Assembly (NCBI GenBank): GCA_041601615.1
Contig: JBFIHX010000003.1
Coordinates: forward strand, 256,001 to 320,000
Source: Thermoplasmatota archaeon
GTDB lineage: Archaea; Thermoplasmatota; E2; JACPAO01; JAHFTW01
Direction of reading: 5' to 3'
Length of the DNA stretch: 64,000 bases
Notes under the pieces: generated by a model
Told to the model about the DNA's origin: nothing
The model's input: only the letters and a program-made list of their open reading frames with translations
Databases searched by the model: none
Shown: piece after piece, positions 39,855-43,437 of the stretch
Layout: the number at the start of each line of letters is the position of its first letter
How positions within the stretch are numbered: the stretch's first letter is position 1
Position numbers and translations under genes: made by a program

Positions 39855-39926
39855 GGGCCTATAGGGTAGTGGATATCCTTTCGGCCTTCGAAGCCGAAAA
39901 CCCCGGTTCGAATCCGGGTAGGCCCG
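39855..39926 (+). tRNA. tRNA-Arg(TCG)
   Basis: Acceptor GGGCCTA/TAGGCCC, anticodon arm TCGGC-CTTCGAA-GCCGA, GGTTCGAATCC T-arm; no encoded CCA. Confidence 0.95.
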
Positions 39927-40036: not shown

Positions 40037-40342
40037 TGCGAGGAGCAGGATGGTTTGCGGAGGCCGAGCGCAGCGAGGTTTCCGTAAACCGAGGGCGCGT
40101 AGCGCCCGGAGACTGCGGCTCGCATTGAGCGCAGCGAAATGCGAGGAGCAGGATGGGAGTGGGGAGCCCGGAGGGCGACCCCGACCTCCTGCGTCTCGCA
40201 TTCGAGCGAGCGCAGCGAGAGAGAATGCGAGGAGCAGGATTCGACGATAAGCGAATGCGAGCATTCGCTCATCGATCTCGCTCTCTTCGTTCGCGAGCAA
40301 ATCCTGCTCGCGCAAAATGCCCGGTCGGGGACCGGGCATGAA
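40037..40342 (-). repeat. Array of three tRNA-Leu 3'-end copies separated by hairpin-rich spacers
   Basis: TGCGAGGAGCAGGAT (+ strand) at 40037, 40140, 40226 and in the tRNA at 40343. Confidence 0.92.
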
Positions 40343-40424
40343 TGCGAGGAGCAGGATTCGAACCTGCGAACCACTAAGGACCAGCCCCTCAAGCTGGCGT
40401 CGTTGGCCGCTTGACTATCCTCGC
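40343..40424 (-). tRNA. tRNA-Leu(GAG)
   Basis: GCGAGGA/TCCTCGC acceptor, CCAGC-TTGAGGG-GCTGG anticodon arm, variable arm, GGTTCGAATCC. Confidence 0.95.
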
Positions 40425-40471
40425 GATGTGTTGGCGGATGCTGTTGTTCGTCCCGCTTGGAGACGAACAAG

Positions 40472-40555
40472 CGCGACGAGGGAGATTTGAACTCCCGTGG
40501 GAAGAATCCCAGAGGCTTAGCAGGCCCCCGCAATACCGAGCTATGCGATCGTCGC
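40472..40555 (-). tRNA. tRNA-Ser(GCT)
   Basis: GCGACGA/TCGTCGC acceptor, GGGGC-CTGCTAA-GCCTC anticodon arm, long variable arm, GTTCAAATC. Confidence 0.93.
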
Positions 40556-40687
40556 TTGCGGATGTCGGCTCGGAGCCCCGTGCCGAAGGCGGGCGACTTG
40601 GGTAGGGGTTATCACCATTTCGTCTGGCGCTGGCTGGAGCTTGGGCGTGGTGGAGGCGGTTTGGGCGTAGGTCTGGGGTCGTTTTGG

Positions 40688-41368
40688 GTGCCGATTGCTT
40701 ATGTGGTTCGTCGGCTCGGGCGGGTCGTGCGGTTCGTGGATGGTCGGCTGCTGATGTGGTTGCTCGTGGCGGTGTTTGCTTCGGGTGTGCCCTTGGCGGT
40801 TTGGTTTGATGCGGATGCGACGCGGGCGGTGTCGTTGGTGGAGCGATGGCTGCGGGGGGCGCACGCGGTTTCCACGGCGTTGCTGGTGTTGGGGACTGTG
40901 TTGCACTTGGTCATGCGGCTTCGGGGGCGCGTGGAGCCGCGGGTGGTCCGGTGGGGCGGTTTGTCGCTGGCGTTTGTGGGCCTTGCTGCGGCGACGGGCG
41001 CGCTCGTGGACCAGACGGGGCACGGGGCGCGAGCGTGGGCACGCCTTGGATTGGATGTGGGTGCGGTTTCGGCGGTTGCTGTGGTGCATGTGGCGTTTGC
41101 TTCGGTGCTGGTGGCGTTGGGCGTGTATGTTCATGTGGCGCGCAAGTCTCGGGTGCGGATTTTTGGCGGTTGGCAAAGTGCTGCGATTTCGTTGGTCCTG
41201 GTGGTCCTCGGCGTCGCGTTGTTGCCGGGCGTGGCTCCGGGTGCCGGTTCTGGGCACATTGCGACGGTTGCCGTGGCGCCGGGCGGCTTTGCGTGGCCGG
41301 TGTTGGTGGGCCTCGTGGTAGCTGTGGGTGCGCGCTGGTTGTCTTCTTGGCGTGGCGGCCTAGCGTAG
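40688..41368 (+). CDS. Membrane protein resembling a divergent cytochrome b N-terminal domain (start uncertain)
   Basis: LRGAH-x13-H and VH-x14-H His pairs in TM helices; W.G and TG motifs. Confidence 0.5.
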   Translation: MPIAYVVRRLGRVVRFVDGRLLMWLLVAVFASGVPLAVWFDADATRAVSLVERWLRGAHAVSTALLVLGTVLHLVMRLRGRVEPRVVRWGGLSLAFVGLAAATGALVDQTGHGARAWARLGLDVGAVSAVAVVHVAFASVLVALGVYVHVARKSRVRIFGGWQSAAISLVLVVLGVALLPGVAPGAGSGHIATVAVAPGGFAWPVLVGLVVAVGARWLSSWRGGLA

Positions 41369-42373: not shown

Positions 42374-42500
42374 CTACTTCGTAAGCACCGTCTTCACGGC
42401 GTCCAGCCGCGTGCTGCACTTCGCTTCGCTCGTACCGCTGCGGGCTCGATGGCTCCGTTTGGCCCTTACTTCGTAAGGACCGCTCGGACCGCATCGAGCA
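42374..42500 (-). repeat. Duplicated transketolase 3' end with hairpin unit (92-bp period)
   Basis: LDAVRAVLTK-TAA (gene) and LDAVKTVLTK-TAG (downstream copy) flanking GAGCGAAGCGA. Confidence 0.88.
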
Positions 42501-43437
42501 TTTTCGGTTGATCGACCTCGAAGTGCTGGTACAGTTCCTCGGGGGTGCCGCTGGTGGTGAAGCTGCGCACACCGATGCGGTGCAGCACACCGCCGGTGGC
42601 GTGCTCGGCCATCACTTCGGCAACTGCACTTCCGAGACCGTTGTGGATGAAGTGGTCCTCGGCGGTGACGATGCGACCGGTCTCGTGGGCACACTTGGAA
42701 ACGAGCGCCTCGTCGATGGGCTTGATGCTGGCCATGTTGACGACACGGACACTGATGCCCTCGGCTTTGGCTTGCTTGGCCACTTGCAGGCTCTCGTTGA
42801 CGTGCGGGCCACTGGCGATGAGGGTGACGTCCTCGCCGTCTTGGACAATCTGGCCCTTGCCCCATTTGAATTCGTAGTCGTCGTCGTGGAACATCGGCAC
42901 GCCTGCGCGAGTGCTGCGCATGTAGCAGGGGCCCTTGCGTTCGTACATGGCGTGGACGGCGGAGCGCGCCTCGTTGGCGTCTGCCGGGGACACGACATAC
43001 ATGTTGGGCAAGGTGCGCATGATTCCGATGTCTTCGAGGCCGTGGGCGCTGCTGCCGTCTTGGCCGGTCATCAGACCACCGTGGCTGCCGCAGAACTTGA
43101 CGTTGAGGCCCTGGCGCCCGACGCAGTTGCGGATCTGCTCCCAGCCGCGTTCGAGGAAGACTGCGAAGGTGCTGACGAAGGGCGTCTTGCCCATGTGCGC
43201 AAGGCCGCCGGCGGTGGTGACCATGTCCTGTTCGCTGATGCCCATTTGCACGAAGCGCTCGGGCCATTGGGCTTCGAACCAGTTGCTGCGCGTGCTTCCG
43301 GCAAGGTCCGCGTCGAGGGCGACCACTTCAGGGTGCAAGGCGCCGACTTCCAGGAGGCCGCGTCCGTAGCCGTCGCGGATGGCAACCTTGTCACCTAGTT
43401 TCCAGTTGAATGTCTTCGCGGTGGTGGCGGCTCCCAT
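42466..43437 (-). CDS. Transketolase C-terminal subunit
   Basis: DADL..ST, GISEQ, DG.S.H..ED, GP.Y.R, IKPID, EDH...GLG. Confidence 0.95.
   Translation of the reverse strand: MGAATTAKTFNWKLGDKVAIRDGYGRGLLEVGALHPEVVALDADLAGSTRSNWFEAQWPERFVQMGISEQDMVTTAGGLAHMGKTPFVSTFAVFLERGWEQIRNCVGRQGLNVKFCGSHGGLMTGQDGSSAHGLEDIGIMRTLPNMYVVSPADANEARSAVHAMYERKGPCYMRSTRAGVPMFHDDDYEFKWGKGQIVQDGEDVTLIASGPHVNESLQVAKQAKAEGISVRVVNMASIKPIDEALVSKCAHETGRIVTAEDHFIHNGLGSAVAEVMAEHATGGVLHRIGVRSFTTSGTPEELYQHFEVDQPKMLDAVRAVLTK

Follow-up and report, generated by a model that had tools for sequence, protein, structure and literature searches.

Described repeats at gene ends and the array behind tRNA-Leu(GAG)

The nearest described counterparts of the locus studied here are the tRNA-linked repeats of E. 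coli (TLR/RtT). There are 22 of them at ten loci, with 1-5 per locus, and each ends in 18-19 bp identical to the end of the upstream tRNA or rRNA (PMC8144298). The accessible part of that paper traces them to Egan and Landy 1978 and Rudd 1999 and treats them as sRNA genes whose function is unknown and not as elements of ssDNA. Transcripts of the rRNA-linked TLRs are cut to defined sizes and interact with Hfq and CsrA, and the repeat was suggested to be an RNase E site (PMC8144298); for RrB and RtT a processing that sets small RNAs free is proposed. The tandem GA of RtT is an RNA motif supported by covariation (bioRxiv 2020.02.04.933952). In the E. coli mobilome the tyrT/rttR region is enriched, a signal that was read as RNA/DNA heteroduplex and not as circles (bioRxiv 2024.07.17.603846), and the kit used should be blind to ssDNA. 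The literature covered, outside of which the original 1978 and 1999 descriptions lie, held nothing on TLRs in archaea or on TLRs as ssDNA elements.

The window, i.e. the whole stretch of 64,000 nt analysed here, contains an array behind tRNA-Leu(GAG) (40343..40424, minus strand). The repeat is the last 15 nt of this target gene (40343-40357, tRNA positions 59-73). The preliminary description had the tail recurring three more times at spacings of 117, 86 and 103 bp, with the longest match nearest the tRNA, and both statements hold: the 15-mer ATCCTGCTCCTCGCA is found at 40343-57 inside the tRNA, at 40226-40, at 40140-54 and at 40037-51, and in the tRNA-proximal copy the exact match lengthens to 22 nt. 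This proximal copy, Repeat 1 (40223..40244, minus strand; family D2), includes 3 trailer bases. Repeat 2 (40140..40154, minus strand) is a 15-nt copy of the tail, again tRNA positions 59-73, and the distal 15-nt Repeat 3 (40037..40051, minus strand) would be the oldest displaced tail. One 14-mer from ATCCTGCTCCTCGCA occurs exactly four times in the 2.79-Mb assembly, always in the array. Compared to dinucleotide shuffles the array region has folding z-scores of -6.5 (RNA) and -7.3 (DNA). A single public contig covers 39700-40376 with 0 differences, a match that is not independent because the contig may be the source sample.

The tRNA cluster of the array adjoins the gene for ribosomal protein S3Ae, which marks the host as archaeal; named GTDB records that share the anatomy point indirectly to Thermoplasmatota. 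A metagenome scan with this neighbouring protein gave six distant loci at 45-50% identity. Upstream and in the same orientation lies tRNA-Ser(GCT) (40471..40555, minus strand), behind which a unit is absent here and present in the relative G011. The convergent tRNA-Arg(TCG) (39855..39926, plus strand) lies 110 nt past the array, and read-through from it could transcribe the antisense strand of the array. A hydrophobic ORF of 303 aa with no Pfam match occupies 40457-41368 on the plus strand and its start overlaps tRNA-Ser on the other strand. An Rfam search of the window region gave only tRNAs above threshold; a scan of the locus for promoters and terminators, with bacterial consensus sequences only, found nothing. 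It had also been stated that no ORF or integrase lies between the repeats. Taken literally this needs correction, since mechanically called ORFs of 91-224 aa overlap the array; we treated them as non-genes because they run through tRNA genes or repeats, and in that sense the statement remains.

We then compared the array to the TLRs. Its three units lie directly downstream of a tRNA gene, inside the TLR range of 1-5, and they end in exact copies of 15-22 nt of the tRNA tail, where 15 nt together with CCA give the length seen in E. coli. The inner build is also the same, with a tail-matched inverted arm, GNA triloops and identical GAGCG(A/C)AGCGA caps, although this shared inner anatomy is a criterion derived in the present analysis and not one published for TLRs. 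The two differ in length, with units of 86-117 nt and repeats of 15-22 nt in the archaeon compared to 98-181 nt and 18-19 nt in E. coli, and in the folding strand: in the archaeon two of the three units use the strand opposite the transcript, and in E. coli every capped unit tested uses the sense strand. Furthermore the host is archaeal, the units of the array are mutually unrelated and the class reaches protein gene ends. At the gathering threshold of RF00391 there was no match in loci L004, L185 and L199 and there were 9 matches in two E. coli control loci; in the window region no match was found at E<=5. The array thus carries the published hallmark of a TLR and shares the inner anatomy, yet it is no member of RF00391. 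We are confident that its anatomy is of the TLR type, and we class it as an archaeal TLR variant, which includes a strand-flipped subtype and has relatives at the ends of protein genes. The architecture as such was already known from TLRs.

The initial label of the locus as CRISPR-like has to be withdrawn. Cas1 (PF01867), the only cas gene searched for, is absent from the host genome (93% complete), and the spacers fold on themselves and are not foreign. Unit lengths range from 86 to 117 nt, unit 3 occurs at a second tRNA, and there is no match among 50,697 phage and 72,556 plasmid records. Casposons come closer, as those of Methanosarcina form tandem inserts at tRNA-Leu that are flanked by 14-bp duplications of the gene's 3' end, according to the part of PMC4779613 available. 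The inserts of the present array differ in being ~100 nt long, self-paired with the repeat and without terminal inverted repeats, in a genome without Cas1; no inverted pair joins the spacer ends, either among the 25 longest pairs listed or in the folds, and we therefore rejected a casposon or casposon MITE. Remnants of attR left by a prophage or another integrative element would fit the tRNA-targeting integrases that occur in the host order. There is, however, no integrase or cargo between the copies and no spacer equals an element end, the spacers are self-paired and homologous between tRNAs, and the tRNA-plus-cap pattern has 0 matches in viral contigs. The case that the preliminary description had named as refuting, spacers that match the ends of large prophages, did not arise, with 0 matches in phage records, plasmid records and viral contigs. 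Overall, we consider it extremely unlikely that the locus is a CRISPR-like array, a casposon-derived array or a row of attR remnants.

Anatomy and folding strand of the units

From tail copy to tail copy the three units share one layout: first the tail, next a hairpin tip with its cap, then an inverted arm pairing with this tail, and finally one or two further hairpins. The bodies of units within one array are unrelated to each other. All four spacer hairpins that had been quoted for the locus are present in the sequence. Unit 1 (40241..40357, minus strand) measures 117 nt counted from the tRNA's own tail and folds on the sense strand. It consists of a GC hairpin (40317-40339), an inverted arm (~40298-40314) pairing with tRNA positions ~56-73, a capped GAA hairpin (~40277-40297) and a long hairpin (40245-40274). 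The cap is one base off the consensus and is intact in the congeneric genome G002. Identity at the junction begins at tRNA position 55. Folded as circular DNA the unit has z-scores of -9.3 (sense) and -8.1 (antisense), and in the predicted tRNA precursor its arm disrupts the tRNA fold.

Unit 2 (40155..40240, plus strand; 86 nt) adopts its fold on the strand opposite the tRNA. It has a GGA-triloop hairpin with tandem GA (~40160-40182), an arm (40187-40203) whose pairing with the tail copy at 40223-40239 is interrupted by a 2x2 mismatch at tRNA positions 66-67, and the cap GAGCGCAGCGA at 40208-40218. Its DNA circle folds at -20.2 kcal/mol on the opposite strand compared to -17.5 kcal/mol on the tRNA-sense strand. 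Unit 3 (40052..40154, plus strand; 103 nt) likewise folds opposite the tRNA, with three arms: A (40052-40090, cap 40066-76), B (40093-40107, GTA triloop) and C (40113-40151, cap 40127-37), the last of which pairs with the tail copy and again has a 2x2 mismatch at tRNA positions 66-67. The values for its DNA circle are -25.2 (opposite strand) and -19.8 kcal/mol (tRNA-sense).

On the opposite strand units 2 and 3 carry GNA triloops and GA-GC-GNA-GC-GA tips. DNA mini-hairpins of the type GCGNAGC far exceed their RNA counterparts in stability, and this type is found at ssDNA replication origins, as stated in the available part of PMC13037366. GNA triloops with tandem GA at the unit tips are a DNA-specific motif. 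As many of the units that we collected from other loci had been found through the cap pattern, we repeated the census of tips on 20 units fetched by tRNA homology and counted 18 GA-capped GNA tips compared to 0.2 (maximum 2) in shuffles. The loops of these 20 units include GNA in 11/29 triloops and GNRA or UNCG in 2/16 tetraloops.

Altogether 109 units were collected, and 101 were kept (<=150 nt, no whole-tRNA copies). Among these 74 fold on the antisense strand, 17 on the sense strand and 10 are ties. The repeat starts at a median tRNA position of 59 for antisense and 53 for sense units (p=8e-7, with kin that are not independent). We had considered that the folding strand fixes the edge of the T-loop at which the crossover occurs, and dropped this link because the E. 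coli TLRs contradict it, folding in sense and starting at 58-59. Over the 74 antisense-class units, with the class defined by the cap strand, the arm shows 101 wobbles and 160 mismatches when read as antisense and 69 wobbles and 200 mismatches when read as sense. In the haloarchaeal loci L040, L042, L048, L118, L139 and others sense and antisense folders alternate within one array, and the sense-type units there carry the whole T-arm.

For comparison we folded 13 TLR units of E. coli K-12 (behind Lys, Ser, Tyr and Pro tRNAs). Caps lie on the sense strand in 11 of the 13, and the junctions are at tRNA positions 58-59. The arm fits its own tail better than foreign tails in 10/13 cases, a weak control with only four distinct tails. 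The exact cap occurs 19 times in the E. coli genome compared to 15 for the control, which is no genome-wide enrichment; it is enriched only near tRNAs, with 11 of the 19 within 700 nt of them. At serX only 2417 of the 5417 E. coli genomes that match cover the TLR region in full, and the 25 genomes listed have 0-3 annotated RtT copies. The copy number at serX varies among E. coli strains.

These folds also bear on the possibility that the units act as RNA, with the repeated tail as a processing signal that frees small structured RNAs from the tRNA precursor. The preliminary description had offered processed small RNAs as one of its readings. This could apply to unit 1, which folds best on the transcribed strand and for which the rRNA-linked TLRs of E. 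coli, processed and bound by Hfq and CsrA, set a precedent (PMC8144298); it fits poorly with units 2 and 3, which fold opposite the tRNA transcript. The RNA reading is further favoured by the tandem GA of RtT, which covaries as an RNA motif (bioRxiv 2020.02.04.933952), and an antisense transcript of the array could come from the convergent tRNA-Arg. On the other hand, in units 2 and 3 both the caps and the G-T wobbles point to the non-transcribed strand, triloops outnumber RNA tetraloops, the arm of unit 1 breaks the tRNA fold in the predicted precursor and close genomes differ in their units. We therefore regard a role of the units as RNA as quite unlikely.

Related units behind tRNA and protein genes

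Inspection of the other tRNA genes of the genome, which had been suggested as a check, revealed units behind five of the 46 genes examined: Leu GAG, CAG and CAA and two Asp. There were seven initial matches, from which a whole-gene Gly duplication and a doubtful Val were dropped. The unit behind tRNA-Leu(CAG) resembles unit 3, with 89.9% identity over 89 nt, and a unit behind tRNA-Leu(CAA) shares 87% identity over 31 nt with part of unit 2. The earlier statement that the spacers are unique is thus correct within the array only. The arm behind Leu(CAG) has a compensatory change that fits the CAG tail, with one pair tracking the difference between the GAG and CAG tails. Homologous units behind different tRNAs, each with an arm matched to its own tRNA, make serial insertion of mini-elements at a tRNA 3' end, already proposed at the outset, the best-supported reading of the locus.

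Similar structures occur at the ends of protein genes. In a survey of ORFs of 150 aa or more in the host genome, 22 of 7,658 have a 3' GNA hairpin followed by a second copy of their own end, and ~17 of these are credible. The copies are often synonymously recoded, and the GNA lies on the sense strand in 19/22. The arm fits the in-gene copy better in nine cases and the downstream copy in five, with eight ties (n=22). The genes concerned are unrelated and there are no junction bases in common. One such element lies in the window: behind a transketolase-like gene there is a 92-nt capped-hairpin unit (42374..42465, minus strand), after which the last 11 codons and the stop appear again in recoded form, and the arm of the unit matches the in-gene copy.

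A capped core of ~60 nt is present at seven separate loci of the host genome, with gene-end duplications at five. The core sits at C1:235817, C2:182019, C2:306594, C3:92456, C4:168343, C5:134659 and C11:46766, and also at C10:44041, behind unrelated genes; several of the sites have gene-end duplications of 30-60 nt and no tailored arm. The core could represent a mobile subfamily of its own. Several contigs of the assembly are broken by perfect, GNA-capped tandem repeats of 71-133 nt (C4 end, 235553-235753; C9 start, 1-200; C5:1-387; C14:63251-63598; C18:31142-31454; C8 end), and the 83-mer shared by C9 and C4 lies between two genes and takes in a start-codon region. Behind tRNA-Gly(TCC), C10:31500-32069 holds a cluster of capped hairpins on the tRNA-sense strand with no clear tail repeat.

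Throughout the host family units are found behind Leu, Ser, Arg and other tRNAs. The strict tRNA-plus-cap pattern occurs in 18 of 38 genomes of the order, and in none with the reversed control. Across 30 distinct relative loci the gene's own tail is repeated 76-200 nt downstream in 28 (mean for foreign tails 2.1), and 20 of the 30 arms lie above the 95th percentile of foreign tails. In GTDB at least 118 loci have the pattern (~740 estimated), and the matches listed include Halobacteria, Thermoplasmatota, Acidobacteriota, Patescibacteria, Planctomycetota and others. Among 117 GTDB matches listed, the arm lies above the 95th percentile of foreign tails in 42 and the tail repeat is present in 45 (control 3.4).

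Unit content differs between close relatives, which also supports serial insertion. In G002 unit 1 is followed by relatives of unit 3 and then by part of a unit 1, an order that spans a contig break; unit 2 is absent from the assembled parts of that array. Unit 3 homologues lie behind Leu tRNAs of relatives. For eight of them, a set of related sequences with the structure taken from one member, we found 91.8% paired cells and changes on both sides in 11/36 pairs; shuffles reached this in 0/500 cases and slid controls gave 30-45%. The fold of the units is under selection.

These comparisons have to be weighed against the alternative that the units are immobile between sites and arise by local slippage and quasi-palindrome correction around a generic hairpin, or serve as spare or decoy att sites. 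Our enzyme searches found no mover, unit bodies are mostly unrelated from locus to locus, and near-identical tandem copies of a unit exist in L031, L061 and G002. Moreover, the tails of Leu(GAG) and Leu(CAG) are almost identical, and therefore gene conversion could move a unit between them. Against this stand one order of parts and one length range of 65-180 nt from archaea to E. coli and the ~60-nt core at seven separate loci of one genome, five with gene-end duplications, and covariation shows that the fold is selected. We consider immobility of the units improbable.

Proposed mobility of the units and candidate enzymes

At these loci the fold is conserved, the arm matches its target, the tips are of DNA type in either orientation and the units turn over. 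The units probably act as ssDNA mini-elements. Our best reading, which we put forward tentatively, is that they are non-autonomous and that an enzyme acting in trans, probably a tyrosine recombinase, inserts them in the form of folded ssDNA. Excision between two tail copies would turn a unit into an ssDNA circle with nearly all of its bases paired, in which the arm would rebuild a double-stranded att site, like integron attC and CTXphi attP. The enzyme supplied in trans would insert it near the T-loop. Through a single strand exchange, at tRNA position 55-60 or 3' of it, the tRNA would be restored and the old tail displaced downstream. Arrays would be built up and trimmed by repeated entry together with recombination among the short repeats, and retargeting would need correction of the arm against the new tail, e.g. 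by template switching.

In integron attC and CTXphi attP, folding of ssDNA rebuilds a double-stranded recombination site. The folded-ssDNA attP of CTXphi-type IMEXs is an imperfect hairpin with an unpaired or mismatched centre. The attC sites fold as ssDNA (PMC9668308, as far as available), and the units resemble attC and this attP as imperfect hairpins with unpaired or mismatched central bases. A further likeness to attC is the GA-capped GNA tip on the bottom strand of the attC sites of the host genome. The units differ from attC and IMEX sites in having no cassette ORF, a branched fold, an arm derived from the target gene and a tRNA or gene end as target. The RYYYAAC/GTTRRRY core of attC was found in none of the three array units, which led us to reject integron attC as an identity. 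The anatomy is consistent with units that work like attC or IMEX attP, i.e. folded ssDNA recombined by a tyrosine recombinase. The host genome has an integron integrase at C16:15954-17264 (L001; TIGR02249, 414 bits) and attC-like sites on C1, C4, C5, C6, C7, C11, C13, C16, C21 and C25, whose tips are the GA-capped GNA hairpin.

A tyrosine recombinase may be the mover, an assignment that we make with reserve. We favour this family because folded-ssDNA sites are known substrates of it and because the tRNA-Met att remnants start at position 60, like the antisense units: ordinary remnants of this type in the host genome begin at position 60 and the median of antisense units is 59. The tyrosine recombinases of the host genome (93% complete) are the integron integrase, a divergent integrase behind tRNA-Met and one fragment, none of them near a unit. 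A regex search of up to 3 kb of flank at 46 repeat-bearing loci gave a tyrosine-recombinase or GIY-YIG motif in none. Among 34 integrase loci of the order none ends in unit anatomy, and two have a unit-bearing tRNA nearby with the integrase upstream. In the unit-bearing genomes G002 and G010 (MAGs 86% and 74% complete) PF00589 gave a weak match or none. A sequence-specific tRNA integrase fails to explain units at unrelated protein gene ends. Contigs of four runs from one study contained no excised or empty-site joints, with the X2-X4 contigs covering units 1 and 2 only partly; the lack there of a joint that skips a unit speaks neither for nor against mobility.

Other families of hairpin-processing enzymes were considered as well. 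REP and REPIN elements carry a GTAG/CGTC tag and depend on a RAYT transposase. The units lack a terminal GTAG and differ further in having a target duplication and a target-matched arm; they share with REP/REPIN the character of non-autonomous hairpin repeats that act as ssDNA and form tandem arrays (PMC3733652, in the part available). The Y1 transposase domain PF01797 is absent from the host genome and five relatives, and the host genome (93% complete) holds no Y1/RAYT, reverse transcriptase or IS110 transposase.

A small GIY-YIG nuclease of the Ssn type could also drive the hairpin units, by nicking followed by repair that copies the unit and the gene end in a homing-like manner. In the accessible part of PMC11893778 Ssn proteins cut their own hairpin repeats only as ssDNA, and the main text as available mentions neither tRNA nor archaea. 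Ssn repeats (NTS/SRM) are, like the units, short ssDNA hairpin repeats, and small GIY-YIG genes follow a tRNA and cap in some bacterial loci. Among the 118 GTDB loci listed, a candidate small GIY-YIG-type ORF starts 80-200 nt behind the tRNA and cap in eight, compared to one upstream; this count comprises five by motif regex and three more and is not Pfam-based. Synonymously recoded gene ends would fit an escape from recutting. The SRM consensus, however, is found in 0/101 units, no GIY-YIG motif flanks the 46 repeat-bearing loci, and the tail repeat follows the gene in 0/5 loci with enough flank. A second PF01541 match beside the UvrC-sized one is present in only five of 32 family genomes, the small PF01541 gene of the host genome and its orthologue in G018 lie behind a purE-like gene without such hairpins, and G002 has the array yet its PF01541 match is the UvrC-sized one only. 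A GIY-YIG nuclease as driver of the units is thus unlikely in our view. Small GIY-YIG-type ORFs behind a tRNA end and paired caps are found in L035, L049, L076, L079, L112, L124, L131 and L150; the upstream gene in L049 is apparently tmRNA, and versions of the GIY-YIG leader without the gene occur in L036, L058 and others.

In E. coli, TLRs carry small-RNA annotations and have lacked an explanation since 1978. Their anatomy recurs in an archaeon, in many phyla, on both strands and at protein gene ends, and this offers a concrete alternative, namely folded-ssDNA mobile units, which is testable in E. coli K-12. If insertion is by structure and not by a fixed target sequence, the enzyme would represent a novel type of site-directed integrase and provide a route for the exchange of gene ends. 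A wider and rather doubtful extension would join TLRs, the archaeal units and the gene-end hairpin elements in one cross-domain system of self-programming ssDNA mini-elements. Each element would carry a copy of a gene 3' end and a pairing arm and so build its own recombination site, and one structure-reading enzyme would insert it at any tRNA, rRNA or protein gene end, swapping the tail. If true, integration would here be DNA-guided and retargetable, and E. coli K-12 would already harbour members of the system. Even if the units are not mobile ssDNA, a false CRISPR-like call is removed and the RtT annotations are flagged for review.

Some integrase loci of the host group deserve mention in their own right. 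The divergent integrase of the host genome is a 384-aa tyrosine integrase behind tRNA-Met(CAT) at C13:21850-23160 (L002). On C17 two tRNA-Met att remnants that start from position 60 lie at 42805 and 52262, ~9.5 kb apart, and belong to ordinary tandem integrative elements. L236 (G005:C200) has a strong PF00589 match that may be an integron integrase and stops immediately behind a convergent tRNA-Glu gene.
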